A DNA stretch of 64,000 nt from an uncultured Acidimicrobiales bacterium (GTDB lineage: Bacteria > Actinomycetota > Acidimicrobiia > Acidimicrobiales > SZUA-35), in NCBI GenBank assembly GCA_963698395.1, contig CAVOQQ010000003.1:713267-777266 (forward strand). The letters run 5' to 3'. The notes under the pieces are model-generated. The model saw only the letters and a list, made by a program, of their open reading frames with translations, was not told the origin of the DNA and did not search any database. The position numbers were made by a program, and so were the translations under genes. Positions 1,694 through 53,971 of this stretch are shown here, in pieces; positions within the stretch are counted from its first letter, which is position 1; every line of letters begins with the position of its first letter.

Positions 1694-2300
1694 CGGCGTG
1701 GAAGACATCGGGCTCCCAGGTCAAGGTGGGCACGTCGGCCGGGAGATGCTTGGTGTGGAACCGCAACGGGGTCTGTTCCGACGCCCACTTGATGGCCGAG
1801 GCCGAGTTGGGATGTTCGCCGAGCTGCAGAAGCGTGACCCACGTCGGCGGCACCAGTTCGATCTGCCCCGACCGATGGAGTTCCATGGCGTTCGACGGTG
1901 TGAGCCAGCGATGCTCGTGGATCTCTCCGTCGTCGATGACGACGTCGCCTGAAGGGGCGATCGTGGCGAAAAACCAGGTGCTGAAGCGCCGACGAGGACC
2001 CCGTGTGGTGGCCATTACCGACGCCACCGGCGGCTGCCAATGCGACCAGGTGACGAGTTTGTCGGCCGAGATGGTGAGCCCGGCCTCTTCCTGACATTCC
2101 CGAGCCGCGGCTCGCCGAGCCGTTGCCAGCTCGTCGTCGTGGTCTCGCTCGTGCTCATCGACACGGCCCCCGGGGAAGACCCATGCACCGCCGAAGGCGA
2201 TCGTGGAATTGCGACGCAGCATCAACACTTCGGGACCTTCGGTGGTGTCTCGAAGCAGCAAGACGGTTGCTGCGGAGATCAGTTCGAGGTCGTCGGTCAT
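1617..2300 (-). CDS. NUDIX hydrolase
   Basis: ORF 1617..2405 contains the Nudix box GGRVDEHERDHDDELATARRAAARECQEEAGL. The internal ATG (MTDDLEL..., about 2300) is preferred over the TTG at 2405. Confidence 0.85.
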   Translation of the reverse strand: MTDDLELISAATVLLLRDTTEGPEVLMLRRNSTIAFGGAWVFPGGRVDEHERDHDDELATARRAAARECQEEAGLTISADKLVTWSHWQPPVASVMATTRGPRRRFSTWFFATIAPSGDVVIDDGEIHEHRWLTPSNAMELHRSGQIELVPPTWVTLLQLGEHPNSASAIKWASEQTPLRFHTKHLPADVPTLTWEPDVFHAGGGADDPGPRHRMALHPEGWRYERT

Positions 2301-2359
2301 CGTTTCCAACCTAGCCACGGAGTCGGAAACACACGAAATGAGCCCGGGGCTGGCGTAAC

Positions 2360-3097
2360 GTGGGCCAGATGCATCGGGACGGCATCGAGGTGGCAGTGGC
2401 AGCAACCGTCGGTGCAGTCATTGCGCTCGTGGTCTGGGCGCTGATGCAGAACCCCGATGACATCACCGACTCCGATTTCCAGCGGCAGGCGTCATCGGAA
2501 TCGGTCGATACCGCGGAGGGATCGACCAGCGAGGCGGGTTCTGCGGCAACGACCCAACCGCTGCGTGAACAGGCCGACATCAACGAGTTCCTTGCTGCGT
2601 TCCGCACCAGCCGAACCGGTACCTACAAGGTGGACGGTCGGGTGCAGGTTGCCCAGGCAGGCACCGACGACACCAACCAGATCCTCTTCACCATCGTGCG
2701 CCGCGGCGCCGAGACGATCGAGGTGGCCGGAACCACCCTGTTGGTTTCTCTCGACGGGCAGACACAGACCTGCGAGCGAGTGTTCGGCGAAGACCTCGTG
2801 TGCGGCGAGGTGATCCCCACTCCCGACGTCGACGCCGAAGTTGCGAGCCTCGAAGTCCTCTTCGGCGGGACGGACCCCGAGTATCTGCTGTACGCCGATC
2901 AACCGGGATGCTGGCAGCTCGTGGCGACGACCAATCCGGCGCCTGCACAGTGGGGGCAATCGACCACGATCTGCTTCGATGAACAGACCGGTGCCATCGC
3001 TCGACAGACCACGAGCAGCATGCAAGGCACACGGACGTACGTTGCCGAAACGATCGACCCCGACGTCACCGACGCCGACCTGCTGCCCCCGTCGTAA
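2360..3097 (+). CDS. hypothetical membrane-anchored/secreted protein
   Basis: 245-aa ORF with an N-terminal hydrophobic helix (VAVAATVGAVIALVVWAL) and coding-like third-position GC. No recognisable catalytic motif. Confidence 0.55.
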   Translation: MGQMHRDGIEVAVAATVGAVIALVVWALMQNPDDITDSDFQRQASSESVDTAEGSTSEAGSAATTQPLREQADINEFLAAFRTSRTGTYKVDGRVQVAQAGTDDTNQILFTIVRRGAETIEVAGTTLLVSLDGQTQTCERVFGEDLVCGEVIPTPDVDAEVASLEVLFGGTDPEYLLYADQPGCWQLVATTNPAPAQWGQSTTICFDEQTGAIARQTTSSMQGTRTYVAETIDPDVTDADLLPPS

Positions 3098-3343
3098 GAC
3101 TCGACGAGCGGTGCGGTGGGGGTGCGGCATCTTTGCCGCTTCGCTCCTCACGACGAGGATGGGGATGGGACGAGCGAAGGCCACCGGTGCGTTGCCGACC
3201 CGAAGGCCGACGCTGCGATGCGTGTGGAGGGAGTGGTGACCCCCGCTCGTATCCCGAAACCGGTGTGGGCGATGACCACCGGTGTGCTCATATCATCGGT
3301 TGGCCCTCCCCCCGACTTGAGGGCTGATTCGAGAACTTTTGCG

Positions 3344-3568
3344 ATGATCATTGCCCAAGACCCCAATCTGCTCGGAGACAACCTTCTGGCGTGGCTGGTG
3401 CTGGCCATCGGCGGCGCCCTGTTTGCCGGTACCGCCATGGCGGTGTTTCGCCCGCCGGAGGAAACCAAAGAGGGCCAGTTGGCCCGGGCACCGCTCGGCC
3501 GAAGCATCGTCCAGATGCTGATCGGCTTCGTGGCCAGCGCTTGGGCACTCGCCACACTGCTCGCCTGA
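3344..3568 (+). CDS. small two-helix membrane protein (hypothetical)
   Basis: Internal Met of ORF 3116..3568 (MIIAQDPNLLGDNLLAWLVLAIGGALFAG...IGFVASAWALATLLA). The upstream part of the ORF does not look protein-like. Confidence 0.45.
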   Translation: MIIAQDPNLLGDNLLAWLVLAIGGALFAGTAMAVFRPPEETKEGQLARAPLGRSIVQMLIGFVASAWALATLLA

Positions 3569-45199: not shown

Positions 45200-45520
45200 G
45201 GCGGTGACCTCTTCAGACGTTCGACTGGCAGTCGTTCTCACGGCAGGGACCGAGTGGTCACAACCGACCGCCAAATGGTAGCGGCCCAACCACTCGCCTC
45301 CACCCGCAGGCATCGGCAACGGTGCGCGTGTGAACCCGGCGCCATGAGGCGCTCCACCCGATGTGCCCGGCCGAGGGTAGTGATGCCCACGGGTCGCCGC
45401 GTGGATGGTTCGAATGACCTATGCGCAACACGGGCAATTATGTCGATACGGTGACGAAACCCGTTCAAGGCGAAAGGTCGAACCACTCGATGGCCGACCA
45501 CGTCTGTGAAGGAGATCCCC

Positions 45521-46738
45521 TTGCTGAAGAAACGCGTTACCGGCGTGGCTGTCGCTCTCAGCGCACTCGCCTCCGCCGTCGTGGTGGTGCCCGTCTCGCC
45601 CGCAGGAGCCGAGGTCGTGGTGCACGACATCGTGCTTCCGGTCGATGCCGGCTCGCTCGATCAGGTCTACTGGACCGACACCTGGGGTGCGCCGCGCAGT
45701 GGCGGTCGCGCGCACGAAGGCGTCGACATGATGGGTCCCAAGGGCACGCCGCTGCTGGCGGCGGCCGACGGTGTCATCACGTGGTTCCGCCACGACGACG
45801 TGCGGGGCAACTACCTCGAGCTCACGGGCGACGACGGCTGGGTGTACCACTACTCCCACATGAACAACGACACGCCCGGTACCGACGACGGTGCCAACCC
45901 GTTCGAGTACGCCTATGCCCCTGGCATGGAACGCGGTGTGCGGGTCAGTGCCGGTCAGCTGATCGCCTACATGGGCGACTCGGGCAATGCCGAGAACGCG
46001 GGCTCGCACCTGCACTTCGAGATCGAGACACCAGACGGTCAGGCCATCAACCCGACGCCCAGCGTCGACGCGGCGAGGACCCGGGTGGGCATGCCGTCGA
46101 TCCCGGCCAGTCTGCTCGGTCCATTCGATTCGGCGCTCGCCCTCAGCACCGAGGTCTTCACCACCTTCACCGGCCGCGAGCCGACGTCGGCCGAGGTATC
46201 GTTGCTCGCCCATGCAGTCGTCGATGGCGGATTGGCCAACGCCATCGTCCCCTACGTCGACAGTGCGTCGTCGGTTGCACAAATCGACCGCCTGTACGTG
46301 GCGTACTTCCTTCGTCGGCCCGACTTCGGTGGACTGCAGTACTGGCTCGGCATCCGTGGTTCGGGCACCAGCGTCACCCAGATTGCCGATTCGTTCGCTG
46401 ACGGCGACGAGTTCAAGGCCCGCTACGGCAGCCTGACCTTCGGCGACTTCGTCGATCAGCTCTATCGCGACGTGTTGTCTCGCGAGCCGGATGAGGCAGG
46501 GAAGGCGTACTGGCTGGCCGAACTGGCTGCCGGGCGGGTCACACGCGGCAACATCGTCGTGCAGTTCACCGAGGGTGCCGAGCTGATCGGTCTCACGAGC
46601 AAGCGCAGCGAGGTCGTCGGCCTCATGGCGTTGTTCGGCGATACCGCACCGACCGATGCCGAGATCGAGGCATGGATTGCCGACCGGGCAACGATGTCGC
46701 TCCCCGACGCGGCCCAGGCATGGTTCCTCACGGACTGA
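45521..46738 (+). CDS. secreted M23 metallopeptidase with C-terminal DUF4214-type repeats
   Basis: Signal peptide, HEGVDM (HxxxD), SHLHFE (HxH) and two DUF4214-like repeats (…YFLRRPDFGGLQYW…, …LYRDVLSREPDEAGKAYW…). The TTG at 45521 follows GAAGGAGA; the ORF track has a GTG at 45506. Confidence 0.88.
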   Translation: MLKKRVTGVAVALSALASAVVVVPVSPAGAEVVVHDIVLPVDAGSLDQVYWTDTWGAPRSGGRAHEGVDMMGPKGTPLLAAADGVITWFRHDDVRGNYLELTGDDGWVYHYSHMNNDTPGTDDGANPFEYAYAPGMERGVRVSAGQLIAYMGDSGNAENAGSHLHFEIETPDGQAINPTPSVDAARTRVGMPSIPASLLGPFDSALALSTEVFTTFTGREPTSAEVSLLAHAVVDGGLANAIVPYVDSASSVAQIDRLYVAYFLRRPDFGGLQYWLGIRGSGTSVTQIADSFADGDEFKARYGSLTFGDFVDQLYRDVLSREPDEAGKAYWLAELAAGRVTRGNIVVQFTEGAELIGLTSKRSEVVGLMALFGDTAPTDAEIEAWIADRATMSLPDAAQAWFLTD

Positions 46739-48041
46739 GCGAGTCACACCAATCGGCGGCCGCTTCGCAGAAGCGATCGAGCTGCGCGTCGGTGACCGGG
46801 ATCGAGAGTGCGATGAACCCCCGTCTCGCCAGGTAGAAGCCGGCATCGAGCATGTCGAAGAAGAACAGCTCTCGGTAACGCTCGTCGCTCGCGGTGAGGT
46901 CAGAAGGCGACCGAACCGGGCCGGGCACGGCGTGCACGTTCATCAACGAGCCAAGCCCCGACACACTCATCGGCAGGCCGGATCGTGCGAAGATCGCCGC
47001 CAGGTCGGCGCGTAGACGCTCACCCTTGTCGTTGAGCGCACCGATGGCGTCGGCGGTGGCGACCTGCTCGAGCGTTGCCACGCCGGCGGCCATCGTGAGC
47101 ACGTTGTTGTTGAAGGTTCCGGCATGGCCGAGGGACTCGAGACCTGCGTAGGGCCCATCGGTCGACGATCGGCCGGTGTCGAAGACCGACAGGATGTCGG
47201 CTCGCCCACCGAAGGCGCCGAAACTCATGCCGCCGGCGAGGTATTTGCCAAACGTGGTGAGGTCAGGCATCACGCCATAGCGCTGCTGCGCACCCCCAGG
47301 CGACAGGCGAGAGGTCATCACTTCGTCGAAGATCAGCAGACTTCCGTGCCGATCGCAGAGCGAGCGAAGCCCCTCGAGGAACGAGGGTTCACCGGGGATA
47401 CAACCGCCGGAGCCGAGCATGGGTTCCACCACGATCGCCGCGATCTCCTCGCCGCGACGTTCGAGGACGGAGGCCACCGAGTCGAGGTCGTTGAACGTCG
47501 CCACCTCGGTGTCGAACGGCACGTTGATCGCCCGACCGCCGGCGCCGTAGGTCAGGACACCGCCGTGGTAGCCACCGTCGAAGACGATGATGGTCGACCG
47601 ACCGGTGACGTGCCGAGCAGTGGCAATTGCCATCAGATTCGCTTCGGTGCCCGAATTCGTGAAGCGCACCCGTTCGAGCGACGGGAATCGGTCGACCATG
47701 AGCTCGGCGAAACGAATCTCGTTGGGATGGGTGGCGCCGAGTGCCCAGCCCGACGTCATGGCAGCAGCGACGGCATCGGCCACCGGCGTGGGGGAGTGGC
47801 CGGCCAACCCGGCGGTGTAGTTTCCGAGCAGATCGACCATGCGGTGACCGTCGACGTCGGTGAGCGTTGCCCCGTCGGCCTCCGCCACCCGGAAGGGAAA
47901 GGGATCGAAATGCAGAACGGTACGGGTGTGACCGCCGGGCAGGTAGCGAGCGGCCTCGTCGGCCAAGGCAGCGGATCTCGGCCGTTTGGCAACATAGGTT
48001 TCCCGAGCCGCATCGAGTCGTTCGTCGAGGGTCGTCGTCAC
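46728..48041 (-). CDS. class III aminotransferase (glutamate-1-semialdehyde aminomutase-like)
   Basis: GNYTAGLAGHSP, FTNSGTEANL, LIFDEVMTSR and TFGKYLAGG (PLP Lys). Confidence 0.9.
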   Translation of the reverse strand: MTTTLDERLDAARETYVAKRPRSAALADEAARYLPGGHTRTVLHFDPFPFRVAEADGATLTDVDGHRMVDLLGNYTAGLAGHSPTPVADAVAAAMTSGWALGATHPNEIRFAELMVDRFPSLERVRFTNSGTEANLMAIATARHVTGRSTIIVFDGGYHGGVLTYGAGGRAINVPFDTEVATFNDLDSVASVLERRGEEIAAIVVEPMLGSGGCIPGEPSFLEGLRSLCDRHGSLLIFDEVMTSRLSPGGAQQRYGVMPDLTTFGKYLAGGMSFGAFGGRADILSVFDTGRSSTDGPYAGLESLGHAGTFNNNVLTMAAGVATLEQVATADAIGALNDKGERLRADLAAIFARSGLPMSVSGLGSLMNVHAVPGPVRSPSDLTASDERYRELFFFDMLDAGFYLARRGFIALSIPVTDAQLDRFCEAAADWCDSLSP

Positions 48042-48371: not shown

Positions 48372-48652
48372 TAGTCGAGTGTCACCACCGGTCATGGAGG
48401 CTCGGATGACCGTCGCCACCACACTGGGTGACATCCAGATGAACACGGTGCGTCGTGTCCAGCACTGCCTCACGCTGGCGCCTTGCCGCCCGCATCGGGC
48501 GGTGTCGGCCGCTCGCACCGGCGACGGTCATATCGGCGACCTTAGATGTCATACCGGCGACGTAGCCTTCGGGTCACTCGCCCGGTGTGTCGCTCCGGTG
48601 CCGCCTCGCCGATGTGCATCGGCCATCGACGCAACAACGAACGAGACACCGC

Positions 48653-50020
48653 ATGTCACCCTCCTCACCTACGAACGCCGCACCTACGAACGCCGCACCG
48701 CCACCACGAACAACGCCGTCGCCGTCGACCGCAGACTCGTCCGATGCAACGGGTGCCGATTGGCACCGGCTCGAGACCCGCCTGCTCGATCTGGTCACCG
48801 AGGCCTACGACCAGGGTTGGCAGCCGGCCGAGCTGCTACGCCAGGCGCGACGCCAGGCCACACGCCCGGCGTTCGCTCTTGCCATGCTGGCGATCGCAGC
48901 CGATCATCGATCACGCCCGAGCAGCGCCTACCACCCGCTCTGGCTCGAACAGATCGAGGGGCTCGACCTGCCGATCGACGACGCCACCGGCGGTTGGCTC
49001 CGTCGTGCGCTCGACGACCCGACGCCTCCGAGCCCCTCTCCTGTCGCCGACGGGGCGGTTGCCGGCTCGCCACGCGGCGATGCTTCACCGGGTGATCGCC
49101 GGGGCGCTCGTGCCGGTGCCGACGCGATCGCCGACGCGATCGCCGACGACGCCTGGTCGCTCTTCCTTGCCTGGGCAACGCCACCGGAGCTGCCATGCCT
49201 GCTTCCACCACCGGTGGGTGTCAGGGCGCGATTGATCGTCGACCTTGCCGGCTCGACCGCACCCAACCCCATCCTCGACAAGGTGCGGGCGCTGCTTGCC
49301 AAGGCCGAAGCCACCACGTTCGAGGCCGAGGCCGAGGCGTTCACCGTCAAGGCGCACGAGCTGATGGCGAGGCACCTGATCGACGATGCCGTTCTGGCGG
49401 CCGGCCGCCGCAGCACCGGACGCACCACGGCCCGGCCGATCACCATTCGTCTCCCGATCGACGCGCCCTACGCCGCCCCGAAAGCCACCCTCATCGCCGT
49501 GGTCGCCGATGCCGGCGGGTGCCGCGCCGTGCACCACCAGTCATTGGGTCTCACCTCGGTGGTCGGTCACGCCGCCGATGTGGCCGCCGTCGAACTGCTC
49601 TTCACCTCACTCCTGGTCCAGGCGCAGAGCGCCATGCATGAACAGGCTCGACTGGGTGAGGCGCACCGTCGCCGCGGGTTTCGATCGGCGTTTCTGACAG
49701 CGTTCGCGTACCGAGTGGGGGAGCGGCTGCGAGAAGGCAACGATGCGGTCCGTCGCTCGGTCGAGGAGGCAACCGGTCAGAGCCTCGTGCCGGTGCTCGC
49801 CGAGCGGACGGCTGCGGTCCAAGACGCCTTCGACGAGATCTTCACCGATGTCGTCACCCGACGACCCCCACGCCGGTGGGACCACCGTGGGGCAGCTTCG
49901 GGCCGCAACGCCGCCAACCGAGCCCAGCTCGACACCCCTGCGATACCCGGCGCCGGCGGTGACACGTCGCCAACCGGCCGACGGCGTCTGGCCGGTCCGA
50001 AAGACAACGGCTCCAGTTGA
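48653..50020 (+). CDS. DUF2786 domain-containing protein
   Basis: ILDKVRALLAKAEATTFEAEAEAFTVKAHELMARHLID matches the DUF2786 hallmark. The ATG at 48653 was chosen; the ORF track starts at 48587. A 15-bp tandem duplication (PTNAA x2) lies at 48666-48697. Confidence 0.75.
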   Translation: MSPSSPTNAAPTNAAPPPRTTPSPSTADSSDATGADWHRLETRLLDLVTEAYDQGWQPAELLRQARRQATRPAFALAMLAIAADHRSRPSSAYHPLWLEQIEGLDLPIDDATGGWLRRALDDPTPPSPSPVADGAVAGSPRGDASPGDRRGARAGADAIADAIADDAWSLFLAWATPPELPCLLPPPVGVRARLIVDLAGSTAPNPILDKVRALLAKAEATTFEAEAEAFTVKAHELMARHLIDDAVLAAGRRSTGRTTARPITIRLPIDAPYAAPKATLIAVVADAGGCRAVHHQSLGLTSVVGHAADVAAVELLFTSLLVQAQSAMHEQARLGEAHRRRGFRSAFLTAFAYRVGERLREGNDAVRRSVEEATGQSLVPVLAERTAAVQDAFDEIFTDVVTRRPPRRWDHRGAASGRNAANRAQLDTPAIPGAGGDTSPTGRRRLAGPKDNGSS

Positions 50021-50050: not shown

Positions 50051-50698
50051 TTGACTATGCTCTCGCCAGTCATGAGCATCCTGTCCGGTCCCTTCTCGAC
50101 GCTGCTGGCTGCACTGCTGCTCTCGGGTGCCGACAAGCTCCTGCGGCCGGACGCCGCCGCTCGAGCTCTTGCCACCGCCGGCTTGATTCCAGGACCCTCA
50201 TCCCGCCAACTCCGGACCGGACGAGCGATTGCAAGGGTCTTGGGCGTCGTCGAGGTGGCCGCCGGTGTCGGCGCCGCCTACTCCCTGCTCGTTCTCGAGG
50301 CCACCGATGCTCGGCTCGTGTCGGCGGTCGTCGGGGTGGCGCTCGTCTACCTGGGTTTCGCCTGGTTCCTCCGTCGTATCGAGGCAGTCAGTCCCGGTGC
50401 CTCGTGTGGCTGTTTCGGCAGTGGATCGGCCAGCGGCGCCCTCCACATCATCGCCAACCTCGCTGCCGCTGCGCTCGCCGTCGCCACGGCGGTCACCATC
50501 GTGGTGGCCCCGAGCGATCAATCGCTTCGCCAGTTGCTCGGCAGCGACCTCACCGTCGTTCCGTTGGTCGCCGCCGCGTTCACCGGTGGACTGATGTTGC
50601 TCCTCACACCATCACTGGTCGCCGATGTCCGGCGAGCGCGAACTGGCTCGACCTCGTCGGTGCCCCTTTTCACGGTCTCGAGGTCGATCAGTCCATGA
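50051..50698 (+). CDS. MauE/DoxX-family redox-associated membrane protein
   Basis: Four or five TM helices and the CGCFG motif characteristic of MauE-type proteins. Alternative ATG starts at 50057 and 50072. Its stop overlaps the next start (ATGA). Confidence 0.8.
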   Translation: MTMLSPVMSILSGPFSTLLAALLLSGADKLLRPDAAARALATAGLIPGPSSRQLRTGRAIARVLGVVEVAAGVGAAYSLLVLEATDARLVSAVVGVALVYLGFAWFLRRIEAVSPGASCGCFGSGSASGALHIIANLAAAALAVATAVTIVVAPSDQSLRQLLGSDLTVVPLVAAAFTGGLMLLLTPSLVADVRRARTGSTSSVPLFTVSRSISP

Positions 50699-51963
50699 CC
50701 TTCTCCACCACGCTCACCGATCACCTCGCGTCGGTTCTCGACCGGCGGACGAGCCGTCGCGGGTTCGTCGGCCGTACCGCGCTCGTCGGCAGTGCCGTGG
50801 CGGTGAGCGGCACCGACTACCTACTTCGCCCGGGTACCGCCTATGCAGCCATCTGTCGGTGTCCGCGCCAAGCGATCAACGGCAGCGAACGGCAATGCGG
50901 CTGCGGGGATCTCTGCTGTGATGGGTACACCGAGTTCTGCTGTCAGATCTACGGCGAGAACTCCTGCCCGACCGACACGGTCCTCGCCGGATGGTGGAAG
51001 GTCGACAACTCGACGTTCTGCGATGGCGCAGCCCGCTACTACATGGACTGCAACCAGACGAGCCCGAACTGCACCTGTGGTGCTCGAGGGGTGTGCCGCC
51101 CTGCCGACAACTCCTGCAGCTGTCGGTCCTGTGACAGTCGCGCCGACGGCTGCACCACGTTCCGCTACGGCAACTGCAACAACGACATTGCGTGTGTCGG
51201 ACCCATCATGTGTCGAGTCGTCACCTGTACCAAGCCGTGGGAGATCGACCCTGGCTGCTCGACAGTGGCCCGCACCGATCCGGCCACGGCCTTTCATCAC
51301 CGCCCCTGCCTCGAGGCACCGATCGAGCCGACCGCCGAAGCGCTGGCCTTCGCCTCGGCCCTCTTCATCGACTACCTCGAACGGCCACCGACCGAGAGCG
51401 AACATCTCGAATACGCCACCCGGTTCACCAGTGGTGAGAACCGCAGCCGGATCTCGTCCTCGCTGGCAACGAGCTCGGTCTATGTGGGGTTCTTCGTCGA
51501 TTCGATCTATCAATCGGTGTTCGGTCGAGCGGCAGACCCCGCCGGGCGTGACTACTGGACCGAGCGAATCGTCGGCGGCGTCACACCGGCCGAGGTGGCC
51601 ATACTCTTCTACGGCTCCGAGGAGTTCTACTCGAGTTCCGGCGGTGTGGCGGCCTACGTCACCCGGCTCTATCAAGAGATCCTCGGCCGCGAACCCGAGC
51701 CCGACGGTTTCGAATTCTGGGTCGATCAGGTCGAGGTCAACGACGATCGTCTCGGCATTGCCGACTCGTTCTACTCCTCGATCGAATCTCGCCGCCGCCG
51801 GGTTGCCGATCTGTACCGACGGTTCCTCGATCGAGAGCCCGACGACGCAGGCCTCGAGTATTGGGCCGAGCAGCTGCTCGTCGAAGACGATCTGGAGCTG
51901 GCGGCGTTCCTGTCGGGCAGTGAGGAATATCTCAACCGGGCCCTCGCCAGGTTCGCGCCATGA
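50695..51963 (+). CDS. Tat-exported cysteine-dense protein (MauA-light-chain-like region) fused to DUF4214-type repeats
   Basis: Twin-arginine signal TSRRGFVGRTALVGSAVAV, then about 24 Cys in roughly 165 aa (CRC, CGC, CC, CC, CTC, CSC...), then three DUF4214-like repeats (…YQSVFGRAADPAGRDYW…, …YQEILGREPEPDGFEFW…, …YRRFLDREPDDAGLEYW…). Confidence 0.8.
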   Translation: MTFSTTLTDHLASVLDRRTSRRGFVGRTALVGSAVAVSGTDYLLRPGTAYAAICRCPRQAINGSERQCGCGDLCCDGYTEFCCQIYGENSCPTDTVLAGWWKVDNSTFCDGAARYYMDCNQTSPNCTCGARGVCRPADNSCSCRSCDSRADGCTTFRYGNCNNDIACVGPIMCRVVTCTKPWEIDPGCSTVARTDPATAFHHRPCLEAPIEPTAEALAFASALFIDYLERPPTESEHLEYATRFTSGENRSRISSSLATSSVYVGFFVDSIYQSVFGRAADPAGRDYWTERIVGGVTPAEVAILFYGSEEFYSSSGGVAAYVTRLYQEILGREPEPDGFEFWVDQVEVNDDRLGIADSFYSSIESRRRRVADLYRRFLDREPDDAGLEYWAEQLLVEDDLELAAFLSGSEEYLNRALARFAP

Positions 51964-52006: not shown

Positions 52007-52792
52007 GTGACCATCGTCGTTTGGCTTCTCGTCGCCATCGTCAGCCTGCTGTGTCTCCTCGTGGTGGGCCTCCTCCGTAGTCACGCAGTGATTCTTCGAG
52101 CACTGCACGACGCCGGTATCGACCTCGACCCCGATCGCCATGCTGCTGCTCCACCCGCCAACCGCCTTCGCCCCTCGGTCGAGTTCACTTCCGATACCGA
52201 GCCAACGATTCGCACCATCGACGGCGTCCCGGGTCCGGCGAACGTCACCGGCATGCGGGTGCCCGATCTCGTTGGTGTCACTCCCACAGGTGGAGCCCGC
52301 ACGGTCGCGGTCAACGATCGCGGCGCCACCCTCCTCGCCTTTCTCACCACTGGATGCGCAACGTGCGCCACCTTCTGGTCGGAGTTCGCCAACGGCGTGC
52401 ACCTGCCGGCCAACACTCGACTCGTCATCGTGACGAAGGGCGGCAACGACGAAAGCCCGGCCGACATCGCCGCCATGGCACCGGCGGGGGTGGTCACAAT
52501 CGCTTCGAGCGAAGCGTGGGACGACTACCGCATTCCCGTTGCTCCCTATTTCGTGCTCGTCGACGGCCGTCGCGGTGTGGTCGCCGGCGAAGGCGCAGCA
52601 CACAGCTGGGCGTTGGTCTCACAGCTGCTCGATCGTGCGCTCGCCGATGCCGGCTACGCCGAGGGCGAGCTGCGTCGGCGAGACATTCTGCTCGGACGTC
52701 GCCGCCACGAGCGAGTCGATCTCGACCTGCGAGACGCCGGCATCGTGCCCGGAGACCCGCGCCTCTACCACGGTCGTATCGAACCCGAATGA
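52007..52792 (+). CDS. membrane-anchored thioredoxin-fold protein (TlpA/MauD-like), CATC active site
   Basis: GTG start with GAAGGA 8 nt upstream, an N-terminal TM helix IVVWLLVAIVSLLCLLVVGLL and LLAFLTTGCATCATFW. Confidence 0.8.
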   Translation: MTIVVWLLVAIVSLLCLLVVGLLRSHAVILRALHDAGIDLDPDRHAAAPPANRLRPSVEFTSDTEPTIRTIDGVPGPANVTGMRVPDLVGVTPTGGARTVAVNDRGATLLAFLTTGCATCATFWSEFANGVHLPANTRLVIVTKGGNDESPADIAAMAPAGVVTIASSEAWDDYRIPVAPYFVLVDGRRGVVAGEGAAHSWALVSQLLDRALADAGYAEGELRRRDILLGRRRHERVDLDLRDAGIVPGDPRLYHGRIEPE

Positions 52793-52872
52793 GCAGCTCC
52801 GTCCTCGTCATCGGCATGGTGGCAGCGGTTCTCGGTGCCATTCGATCGACCTGGTCACCCTGAGGTGAGTCG

Positions 52873-53472
52873 ATGCTGTCCAGCATCCACCCCCTCGGTG
52901 AGCGGGGTCGACGAAACAACTTCGCGACGACCGCCGGAGCGTTCGTCATCGGCAGCCTGTTCGGTGGCGCGCTGACCGGATTCGTGTTCGGCGCTGCCGG
53001 CGAAGCCCTCGATCGAGTCATCGGGCCCATCGGCGAGCGTCAGCGCCTCGTCGTGCTCCTGTTCGTCGGTGTTGTTGCGCTCGGTTTCGATCTGAGTGGC
53101 CGGTCGCTGCCCTCGATCGAGCGACAGGTCAACGAGAACTGGCTCGGTGAGTTCCGGGGCTGGGTCTACGGGCTCGGTTTTGGCGTGCAGTTGGGCGCCG
53201 GAATCGCCACCTACATCACCGCTTCCGTCGTGCTGCTCTGGTTGATGGCCATGCTCGTCGTCGGATCGGTCGCTGCCGCCGTGCTCATCGGCGCGACCTT
53301 TGGCTTGATCCGTGGGTCCTCCATCGTCTTCGCTCGGTCGATCACGAGTCCCGAACGTCTGGTTGCGCTCCATCGCCGGCTGCATCAGTCGGTCGGTCGT
53401 GTGCGGGTGCTCACTCGCGCCGCCCTCGCGGCCTTGACCGTCGCCACGGCCGTGGTTGCCGTCGGCGCATGA
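52873..53472 (+). CDS. polytopic membrane protein; the ORF continues in frame upstream across a TGA to an ATG at 52789
   Basis: 199-aa ORF with at least 5 hydrophobic helices. The 24-codon ORF 52789..52863 (MSSSVLVIGMVAAVLGAIRSTWSP) is in the same frame and separated only by TGA plus 3 codons (see findings). Confidence 0.75.
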   Translation: MLSSIHPLGERGRRNNFATTAGAFVIGSLFGGALTGFVFGAAGEALDRVIGPIGERQRLVVLLFVGVVALGFDLSGRSLPSIERQVNENWLGEFRGWVYGLGFGVQLGAGIATYITASVVLLWLMAMLVVGSVAAAVLIGATFGLIRGSSIVFARSITSPERLVALHRRLHQSVGRVRVLTRAALAALTVATAVVAVGA

Positions 53473-53485
53473 AAGGACATCGAGC

Positions 53486-53971
53486 GTGAATCAGCGCAAC
53501 GACGACTCCTCGCTCACCATGATGCGCACCGCTGCGATGCGACTCGGCCTGCCGCCGGGGTGGGAAGCCGAGATCGATGCGGGCTCGGGCGAGGCCGAGG
53601 CCGCCGGCCCCTCGGTGTCCACGCCCCGTGTGCATGTCGCCAACTTCGCACTGCCGGCCGAGCGAGGCGACTTCGGCAGCGGTGCCGTCGAGCGAATGCA
53701 GTCAGGCAACGTACTGATCTGCTTGCTCGAGGAAGACCGGTCCGTGATCGGCACCCGTTTGTTCGATCACGAGGGGCTGCCGGTTCTCACGGTCGACGAC
53801 TTCTCGCCGACGGGCATGCAACGTCCGATCCGTGGGCAGTCGGGAGCCCAGAAGTTCTTCCATGCCAACGGACGTGCCTTTGCGCTCTATGTCGTCGTCG
53901 GCAGCCACCTCTCCCGAGCGTCGTTCATCGACGAGATCAACCGGGTCATTGCCGCCATCGAGATCGTCTGA
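53486..53971 (+). CDS. hypothetical protein
   Basis: In-frame GTG with GAAAGGA 9 nt upstream, 161 aa, coding-like codon usage, no recognised motif. Confidence 0.55.
   Translation: MNQRNDDSSLTMMRTAAMRLGLPPGWEAEIDAGSGEAEAAGPSVSTPRVHVANFALPAERGDFGSGAVERMQSGNVLICLLEEDRSVIGTRLFDHEGLPVLTVDDFSPTGMQRPIRGQSGAQKFFHANGRAFALYVVVGSHLSRASFIDEINRVIAAIEIV

Follow-up and report, generated by a model that had tools for sequence, protein, structure and literature searches.

In a 64,000-nucleotide stretch of DNA from an uncultured Acidimicrobiales bacterium (GenBank assembly GCA_963698395.1, contig CAVOQQ010000003.1, positions 713,267 to 777,266 of the forward strand; hereafter the window), an in-frame UGA codon at positions 52861-52863 is very probably decoded as selenocysteine (Sec), which would make the segment 52789..53472 a single gene for a 227-residue membrane selenoprotein. 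We read the sequences in this way because the TGA is conserved and faces cysteine in aligned homologues, the protein is conserved on both sides of it, the RNA that follows forms covarying stem-loops, and relatives carry the gene beside sel genes. The features on which the argument turns are the following.

52789..53472, plus strand: predicted full-length selenoprotein gene, encoding a DsbD_2-like polytopic membrane protein (assigned from homologues; start position conserved).
52861..52863, plus strand: putative Sec codon UGA, residue 25, in the motif WSP-U-GESM (TGA in 73/80 loci, TGC or TGT in 7/80).
52872..52887, plus strand: hairpin 1, GAUGCU/GUCC/AGCAUC, starting 11 nt after the U of the UGA (invariant in 72 Sec forms).
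52889..52908, plus strand: hairpin 2, ACCCCCUC/GGU/GAG(C)GGGGU (covariation, frozen stem codons and fit to the model of the bacterial selenocysteine insertion sequence, bSECIS).

The first-pass annotation, made from the letters of the window and a list of its open reading frames (ORFs), had described one membrane-protein frame interrupted by a TGA, together with an ATGA overlap, a GGTGAG and a hairpin, and had offered selenocysteine, a nonsense mutation or a base error as explanations. The description was accurate. On the plus strand, 52789..53472 is a single frame of 227 codons including Sec, and the TGA at 52861-52863 is its sole break. The frame reads MSSSVLVIGMVAAVLGAIRSTWSP, then TGA, then GESMLSSIHPLGERGRR (beginning GES-M(52873)LSSIHP...), and ends at its own TGA stop at 53470-53472. 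Its ATG at 52789 overlaps the TGA stop (52790-52792) of the preceding gene, here called B, in the sequence ATGA. The GGTGAG lies 3 nt 5′ of the ATG at 52873. At the RNA level this hexamer occurs twice, at 52864-52869, directly 3′ of the UGA, and at 52897-52902, where it spans the loop of hairpin 2 and its 3′ arm.

With the read-through product as query, a search of proteins returned 358 relatives, and a scan of one genome per GTDB species returned 588, the best 80 loci of which were analysed. The codon aligned with the TGA of the window was TGA in 73 of these species-level loci and TGC or TGT, giving WSPCG, in the other 7; TAA and TAG did not occur. In the Sec forms the TGA stands in the context RSTWSP-TGA-GESMLSSIHP, and the helix upstream of it is kept as protein in all 80 loci. 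The first-pass annotation had taken the 24-codon ORF ahead of the TGA for a genuine first transmembrane (TM) helix, as this conservation bears out, and had pointed to an extra N-terminal helix with TGA or TGC/TGT at this codon as a feature to be sought in orthologues, which is what they carry. Nearly all of the 358 protein relatives are 190-210 amino acids (aa) long, and each one read starts at the methionine that follows the TGA (MLSSIHP...). Six database proteins of 258-273 aa have a hydrophobic helix followed by AAVRSTWSPCG[LQ]SMLS, with the cysteine aligned to the TGA. The start codon lies 24 codons before the Sec codon at the same position in 9/9 loci inspected, the window included, and its overlap with the upstream stop is frequent across loci.

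Conservation around the codon was assessed in 72 distinct Sec-form sequences, which also served for the codon and pairing statistics of the hairpins. Upstream, W-3, S-2 and P-1 are 100% conserved, A-12 is conserved in 99% and R-6 in 96%; downstream, G and the S-M-L that follows are invariant. The third codon positions of the conserved upstream residues vary freely, with a codon entropy of 1.3-2.1 bits. Conserved residues with free third positions indicate that the 24 codons are translated in the same frame and held by purifying selection. The glutamate at +2 (GES) is present in 93% of the Sec forms, and leucine or valine stands there in most Cys forms. The ordinary stops of the family genes are TGA in 67 and TAG in 9, and the stop codon at the Sec position is TGA in 73/73 Sec-form loci.

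Directly 3′ of the UGA the Sec forms contain two adjacent hairpins, at +11..+26 and +28..+47. When RNAfold was applied from the UGA onward, it returned exactly these two, both in the window and in two further Sec loci. Hairpin 1 has the consensus G-AUG-CU/NNNN/AGC-AUC and a minimum free energy (MFE) of -6.9 kcal/mol in the window. The window contains its pattern a single time, where chance predicts 0.00 occurrences; each Sec locus likewise has it once, and no Cys locus has it. It is paired in 100% of the Sec forms, and its sole change is from G-C to G-U; in a Gaiellaceae variant GUG replaces AUG and pairing is retained as G-U. The first base of its loop may be any base and the second U, G or A, with no conserved G. 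The stem includes the AUG at 52873 that gene callers take as the start of a 199-aa ORF, a location that argues against this AUG as an initiation codon.

Hairpin 2 has the family consensus C-CCGCUC/GGN/GAGCGG-G, that is, a 7-bp stem closed by a GGN loop whose first G is invariant. The loop begins 33 nt after the UGA. The copy in the window has an MFE of -10.5 kcal/mol and one bulged C, as in its closest relative (L001). Pair 42-58 covaries (CG in 42 sequences, UA in 21, UG in 7), tying a synonymous histidine codon to the next-but-five amino acid. Pair 45-55 does so too (GC 67, CG 4), as does pair 46-54 (CG 56, UA 14), where a leucine-to-phenylalanine change is coupled to a synonymous change from GAG to GAA. 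For both hairpins together, 98.6% of the cells are paired, against 34-47% when the partners are slid. With covariation tallied per sequence and not per evolutionary event, 39 double-change cells were counted against 11.9 +/- 2.3 in shuffles, and 0/500 shuffles reached 39.

The same constraint was visible in codon usage. From +3 to +14 in the Sec forms, codon choice is frozen at stem positions, and codon entropy is normal in the loops and flanks.

Ser+3: TCG in 72/72; four codons are used at Ser-2.
Ser+7: AGC in 72/72; AGC in 2/61 at Ser-5.
Ile+8: ATC in 69, ATT in 3.
Pro+10: CCG in 66, CCC in 6 (66/72); four codons are used at Pro-1.
Leu+11: CTC in 56/57.
Arg+14: CGG in 66/68; six codons are used at Arg-6 and at Arg+16.

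Variation is found at loop positions, namely the third base of Leu+5, codon +6 and the third base of Gly+12. The Cys forms use other codons at the hairpin positions, fold differently and lack both hairpins. Judged from these alignments, the frozen pattern between +3 and +14 is explained only by RNA pairing.

The minimal SECIS of E. coli fdhF has a spacing of 11 nt, the distance at which hairpin 1 starts. The published bSECIS model asks for an apical loop of 3-9 nt on a stem of 4-16 bp, G in the first two loop positions, a distance of 16-37 nt from UGA to loop and an MFE of -7.5 kcal/mol or lower (PMC13188914). Hairpin 2 satisfies all of these constraints with its GGN loop, 7 bp, 33 nt and -10.5 kcal/mol, and hairpin 1 misses them on spacing (14 nt) and on energy. 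The first-pass annotation had called hairpin 1 compatible with bSECIS geometry. It was right that this hairpin exists, and the hairpin proved to be invariant; the GU at the start of its loop, to which it had pointed, is not conserved, the 14 nt fall short of the 16-37 nt of the model, and it is hairpin 2 that fits. Hairpin 2 may be the one contacted by SelB, and it is the best candidate for the SelB-binding apex of the SECIS. The absolute sequence invariance of hairpin 1 suggests that it may be recognised in its own right or needed as a spacer. In the proposed mechanism, SelB carrying Sec-tRNA(Sec) would be recruited by the two hairpins as a composite RNA structure inside the ORF, just 3′ of the UGA.

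A longer, fdhF-like stem was also considered. In the MFE fold of the window the flanks of the UGA pair with the 5′ arm of hairpin 2, and in the alignment 91% of cells are paired, with pair 9-51 formed in 48/72 sequences and pair 17-45 broken in 66/72. No convincing covariation was found. The long stem and the covarying hairpin 2 are mutually exclusive, and the former is kept only as a possible alternative conformer.

The Sec machinery was found next to the gene in some relatives. The selenoprotein gene belongs to a four-gene cluster, A-B-Sec-D, described below, and in four relatives of the 80 loci (L038, L052, L056 and L079) this cluster lies directly beside sel genes. In L079, selD, tRNA-Sec, selA and selB follow immediately downstream; SelD (TIGR00476, 363 bits), SelA (TIGR00474, 457 bits) and SelB (TIGR00475, 315 bits) all score above the curated cutoffs, and the tRNA-Sec matches RF01852 at 63 bits. 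In L038 and L052, selA, selB and tRNA-Sec are directly upstream of the cluster, and in L056 selD and selA occupy that position. A family member (P0039, 195 aa) and a SelA (P0382) both list 698,898 bp as their longest contig, so a further genome may have the gene and the Sec machinery on one contig. The L056 selA ORF (2092-3498, in a metagenome-assembled genome, or MAG, from long reads) gives a sensible translation for about 300 residues and then runs into an Arg/Pro-rich frame; the break is likely an assembly frameshift.

Some observations weigh against Sec decoding in this organism. None of selA, selB, selD or tRNA-Sec lies within the 64 kb of the window, as the first-pass annotation had already remarked; no SelA from the contig of the window appears among the 120 matches listed for the SelA of L038 as query; and an Rfam search of the SECIS region gave chance matches only, as expected for a bacterial SECIS. 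They have to be set against the alignment of TGA with cysteine, the conserved flanks, the covarying stem-loops and the sel linkage in relatives, which together favour the selenocysteine option of the first-pass annotation.

Other explanations of the UGA account for less of the evidence. The gene might be truly split, the UGA releasing a 24-residue TM peptide and translation re-initiating at the AUG at 52873 through the GGNGAG motif, so that two polypeptides assemble in the membrane. The motif does lie 3 nt 5′ of a conserved AUG, and gene callers and RefSeq annotate a product of 194-205 aa. A mere stop, however, should vary as the ordinary stops of the same genes do, 12% of which are TAG, whereas it is TGA in 73/73 Sec forms; splitting would also delete the only Cys/Sec of the family although its flanks are invariant, the AUG is buried in the invariant stem of hairpin 1, which would hinder initiation, and the covariation of hairpin 2 and the sel linkage would be left without a role. 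We regard this explanation as very improbable. Even less probable is a UGA read through without Sec, by genome-wide reassignment or by a near-cognate Cys or Trp tRNA. A precedent exists in the Eggerthellaceae, one family of Actinomycetota, for which UGA-to-Trp reassignment is reported (PMC13462651). Genome-wide reassignment is excluded here because TGA ends the neighbouring genes and the selenoprotein gene itself: it terminates gene B, the selenoprotein gene and gene D in the window, and across the loci 67/76 B genes and 67/76 family genes. Furthermore, the aligned residue in homologues is Cys and not Trp, and a dedicated RNA structure with adjacent sel genes points to Sec.

Least probable of all is that the window carries a pseudogene, a nonsense mutation or a base-call error. 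The first-pass annotation had noted frameshifts in other genes of the window, and the frameshifted selA in the long-read MAG of L056 bears on this concern about indels in such assemblies. Nevertheless, the same TGA in the same context recurs in 73 species from several actinobacterial classes, which removes the two options of nonsense mutation and base error that the annotation had left standing; the window also retains the N-terminal helix, an unchanged hairpin 1 and a hairpin 2 with a single bulged C. Decoding as Sec thus remains by far the best account of the UGA.

The family is large. When 1.84 billion cluster representatives were searched with a profile, 538 clusters matched at E up to 1e-30. 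Of the best 150, 135 align to the profile starting at residue 1 of their own sequence, which is what truncation at the methionine would produce, and 15 have an N-terminal extension of 24-37 residues, the length of the leading helix plus the Cys-form WSPCG motif. Sec forms outnumber Cys forms about 10 to 1. The carriers are mainly Acidimicrobiia, with further members in Thermoleophilia (Solirubrobacterales, Gaiellaceae) and in Kineococcus, and cultured strains among them are Actinospongicola halichondriae Hal317, Salinilacustrithrix flava EGI L10123 and Kineococcus sp. NPDC059986. RefSeq entries of isolates are named 'hypothetical protein' and are 194, 195 or 205 aa long. The Cys forms make up a distinct subgroup (L029, L064 and L065, also L048, L067, L074 and L075). 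Its proteins have WSPCG[LV]S, measure about 260-270 aa and are extended at the C-terminus by a segment that AlphaFold2, applied to the Cys-form protein P0053, models as a hydrophobic helical region; L075 is a Cys form that retains GES and has lost hairpin 1. Clusters of Acidimicrobiia type were also seen in MAGs labelled Verrucomicrobiales, Gammaproteobacteria, Boseongicola and Acidobacteria (L017, L049, L050 and L053), in contigs that are probably mis-binned; L049 does not differ from L050 in any of the 78 bases compared around the TGA.

The three companion genes in the window are as follows.

50695..51963, plus strand: gene A, with a twin-arginine translocation (Tat) signal, a cysteine-rich domain of about 150 residues and three DUF4214 repeats (matches to TIGR01409 and PF13946).
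52007..52792, plus strand: gene B, with an N-terminal TM anchor and a thioredoxin-like domain with CATC (motif AFL[ST]xGCxxCxxFW).
53486..53971, plus strand: gene D, a conserved 161-aa soluble protein, immediately downstream (67/72 Sec-form loci).

Of the 72 Sec-form loci, 62 contain A, 67 contain B and 67 contain D, and the absences fall mostly at contig ends; the cluster A-B-Sec-D is conserved in at least 62 loci. The same four genes are linked in 3 Cys-form loci, in the order B-D-A-gene. Protein A has about 28 cysteines, and its homologues carry the database name 'twin-arginine translocation signal domain-containing protein'. A structural model of it (predicted local distance difference test, pLDDT, 73.5) gave Foldseek matches only to a C-terminal immunoglobulin/fibronectin type III-like domain. 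The motif of protein B, AFL[ST]xGCxxCxxFW, is found in 72/72 loci with a B homologue, and in none of these is a cysteine of its CxxC replaced by Sec. Protein B matches the MauD model TIGR02661 weakly and below cutoff (E 0.002; 17.6 bits against a cutoff of 188.6). Protein D has no Pfam or NCBIfam match and no conserved cysteine.

In two database proteins, P0203 and P0211, a MauE (PF07291) part is joined to a part resembling protein A. Because the joining stretch is rich in Arg, Pro, Ala and Gly, these sequences may be either true fusions or adjacent genes read through in a wrong frame. In the Actinospongicola clade (L005, L014 and L025) the Sec-form gene has no neighbouring A, B or D but does have a tRNA-Arg in its vicinity. 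The 4,081,608-bp Actinospongicola chromosome that carries the L014 gene also encodes an A homologue (P0137), which does not fall within the 12.6 kb around that gene; this separation implies that the cluster has been broken up in this clade. In the window, a second DUF4214 protein (45455-46735; an M23 peptidase domain followed by DUF4214 repeats) is encoded about 4 kb upstream of the cluster, and the genes in between specify a class-III aminotransferase (46728-48041, minus strand) and a DUF2786/DUF7168 protein (48587-50020).

From hydropathy and charge, the selenoprotein is predicted to cross the membrane six times, with its N-terminus outside and both the GERGRR loop and the loop at 177-204 inside. 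The family has exactly one conserved Sec/Cys, after the proline at the helix break that follows TM1, and the window protein has no cysteine at all. Met29 is invariant in Sec and Cys forms, and the second half of the protein contains the invariant pattern P...RQVNExW...R..Y..G.G.Q.G. The AlphaFold2 model of P0053 is all-helical (pLDDT 93.6; predicted template modelling score, pTM, 0.87), with TM1 broken at S-P-C into helices 2-18 and 21-29. In CcdA and DsbD, two conserved cysteines, in TM1 and TM4, form a transferable disulfide, and the TM1 cysteine sits in the same proline context. When 120 family members were searched against Pfam, 33 matched PF13386 (DsbD_2; E up to 0.1, best 1e-6) and 2 matched PF02683 (DsbD_TM); the Cys-form P0053 had no match to the DsbD families. 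Because of these matches the family is described, from sequence comparison, as a distant DsbD_2/CcdA-like protein; it fails the two-cysteine definition and is not to be filed as a CcdA/DsbD member. Thus the CcdA/DsbD context drawn by the first-pass annotation holds for the profile matches and does not extend to the redox residues, of which there is one where two would be required.

Weak DsbD homology and gene context suggest a function. The selenol may act as a membrane-embedded redox relay with protein B on the disulfides of protein A, a tentative proposal to which we would give somewhat less than even chances. Sec25 would exchange selenosulfide and disulfide bonds with the CxxC of the co-translated, membrane-anchored protein B, in order to form, isomerise or reduce disulfides of protein A, the cysteine-rich Tat substrate; the logic would be analogous to that of MauE/MauD or CcdA/ResA. 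Several results run counter to this proposal. The window protein, with C at the Sec position, found no informative match in Pfam, NCBIfam or the PDB sequences. For the P0053 model, the best Foldseek match in the PDB had an E of 0.85, no TM-score exceeded 0.31, and the 50 matches listed did not include CcdA. With a single redox residue, the family cannot work like the two-cysteine CcdA. Lastly, protein A had been considered as the methylamine dehydrogenase light chain (MauA), on the pattern CPxGT...W...C...Y..DC; this was unsupported by Pfam, by a PDB profile search and by Foldseek.

Alternatively, Sec could be a ligand for a soft metal or a chalcogen in a transporter rather than part of a relay. 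The U-x3-M pair (Sec25 and Met29, on one helix face) and the polar residues of RQVNExW would bind Cu(I), Hg or similar, or sulfur or selenium species, and the ligand would be moved across the membrane, perhaps loading the cysteine-rich exported protein. A lone Sec/Cys without a second conserved cysteine and the invariance of Met29 in both forms are in keeping with this, as are the name 'sulfite exporter TauE/SafE' given to some family members in their sources and the Sec forms of membrane metal transporters (SO_0444 Cu/Zn efflux, putative MerT) in the catalogue of PMC13188914. We nevertheless consider a transporter unlikely: no NCBIfam or Pfam match to such families was obtained, the only Pfam relatives detected are DsbD_2 and DsbD_TM, and a CxxC thioredoxin-like partner accompanies the gene in 67/72 Sec-form loci. 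Returning to the relay, a broader scenario can be formulated, which we put forward as doubtful. An unrecognised and very widespread family, with Sec forms in about 90% of its clusters (at least 538 at 50% identity), would have replaced the cysteine pair of CcdA by a single Sec; a one-selenol relay with a MauD-like thioredoxin would mature protein A; and this would be a main reason for the retention of the Sec machinery in aerobic Acidimicrobiia and in some Thermoleophilia.

On the strength of these comparisons we propose a new, previously unannotated selenoprotein family, widespread in Acidimicrobiia and related Actinomycetota. No model of NCBIfam r20 matches the window protein, no such family is listed in the May 2026 review of 119 prokaryotic selenoprotein families (PMC13188914), the deep-Sep and BSepDB papers do not mention it, and full-text literature searches found no Sec-containing DsbD/CcdA/MauE-like family in Actinomycetota. 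For Actinomarina, a member of the Acidimicrobiia, a 2026 preprint describes universal Sec machinery and uncharacterised predicted selenoproteins, among which one group predicted by deep-Sep matches K07090 (TSUP transporter). If the assignment is correct, hundreds of database entries, among them the RefSeq entries WP_436794400.1, WP_432428633.1 and WP_366175295.1, are truncated at the N-terminus, so that both the first TM helix and the sole catalytic residue are missing from them; they would be corrected by a family model that places U at residue 25. The family would add a membrane-embedded, mainly Sec-form member to the selenoproteomes of aerobic soil and marine Actinomycetota, which are barely described, and would be a specific candidate for the factor that maintains the Sec trait in these organisms. 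The combination of an invariant and a covarying hairpin offers a natural test bed for recognition by actinobacterial SelB. Should the proposed function be true, a thiol-disulfide relay would be working with a single chalcogen.

The gene resembles bacterial selenoprotein genes with a SECIS inside the ORF, such as fdhF/FdhA and SelD, in its in-frame UGA aligned with cysteine in homologues, in the stem-loop directly downstream, whose small apical loop opens with G-G at a distance of 33 nt from the UGA, and in its clustering with selA, selB, selC and selD in some genomes. It differs from them in having two conserved hairpins after the UGA rather than one, in placing Sec in the membrane-embedded part of a polytopic protein and in the roughly tenfold excess of Sec over Cys forms. 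With CcdA/DsbD (PF02683, PF13386) the family shares weak but recurrent profile matches in some of its members, a predicted six-TM, N-out layout, a membrane-anchored thioredoxin-like partner and an active residue after the proline of the TM1 break; it departs from them in its single Cys/Sec, in the lack of any Pfam match for the window protein, in RQVNExW occupying the region of the second CcdA cysteine and in the absence of a Foldseek match to a solved structure. In its gene logic the cluster recalls MauE/MauD, since it combines a membrane protein with a MauD-like thioredoxin and with a cysteine-rich substrate that is exported by Tat; MauE is reported as a DsbB-like disulfide oxidase (bioRxiv 10.64898/2026.03.05.709764). 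Unlike MauE, the present protein is a predicted selenoprotein without a CXC motif, neither it nor the 120 members match PF07291, and no methylamine dehydrogenase genes accompany it. Finally, Sec within an integral membrane protein is a trait shared with the SO_0444 transporter, TsoB, putative MerT and YeeE/YedE, some of which are DsbD-related. Two of these have published motifs, UxC in the SO_0444 Cu/Zn efflux protein (NF033936) and UxxxxU in the rhodanese/DsbD-fusion TsoB (NF045694) (PMC13188914), and the window protein matches none of NF033936, NF045694, PF02411 (MerT) and PF04143 (YeeE/YedE) at E up to 1. The protein described here is set apart from the catalogued membrane selenoproteins by its motif, WSPUGESM, by its operon and by the taxa that carry it.

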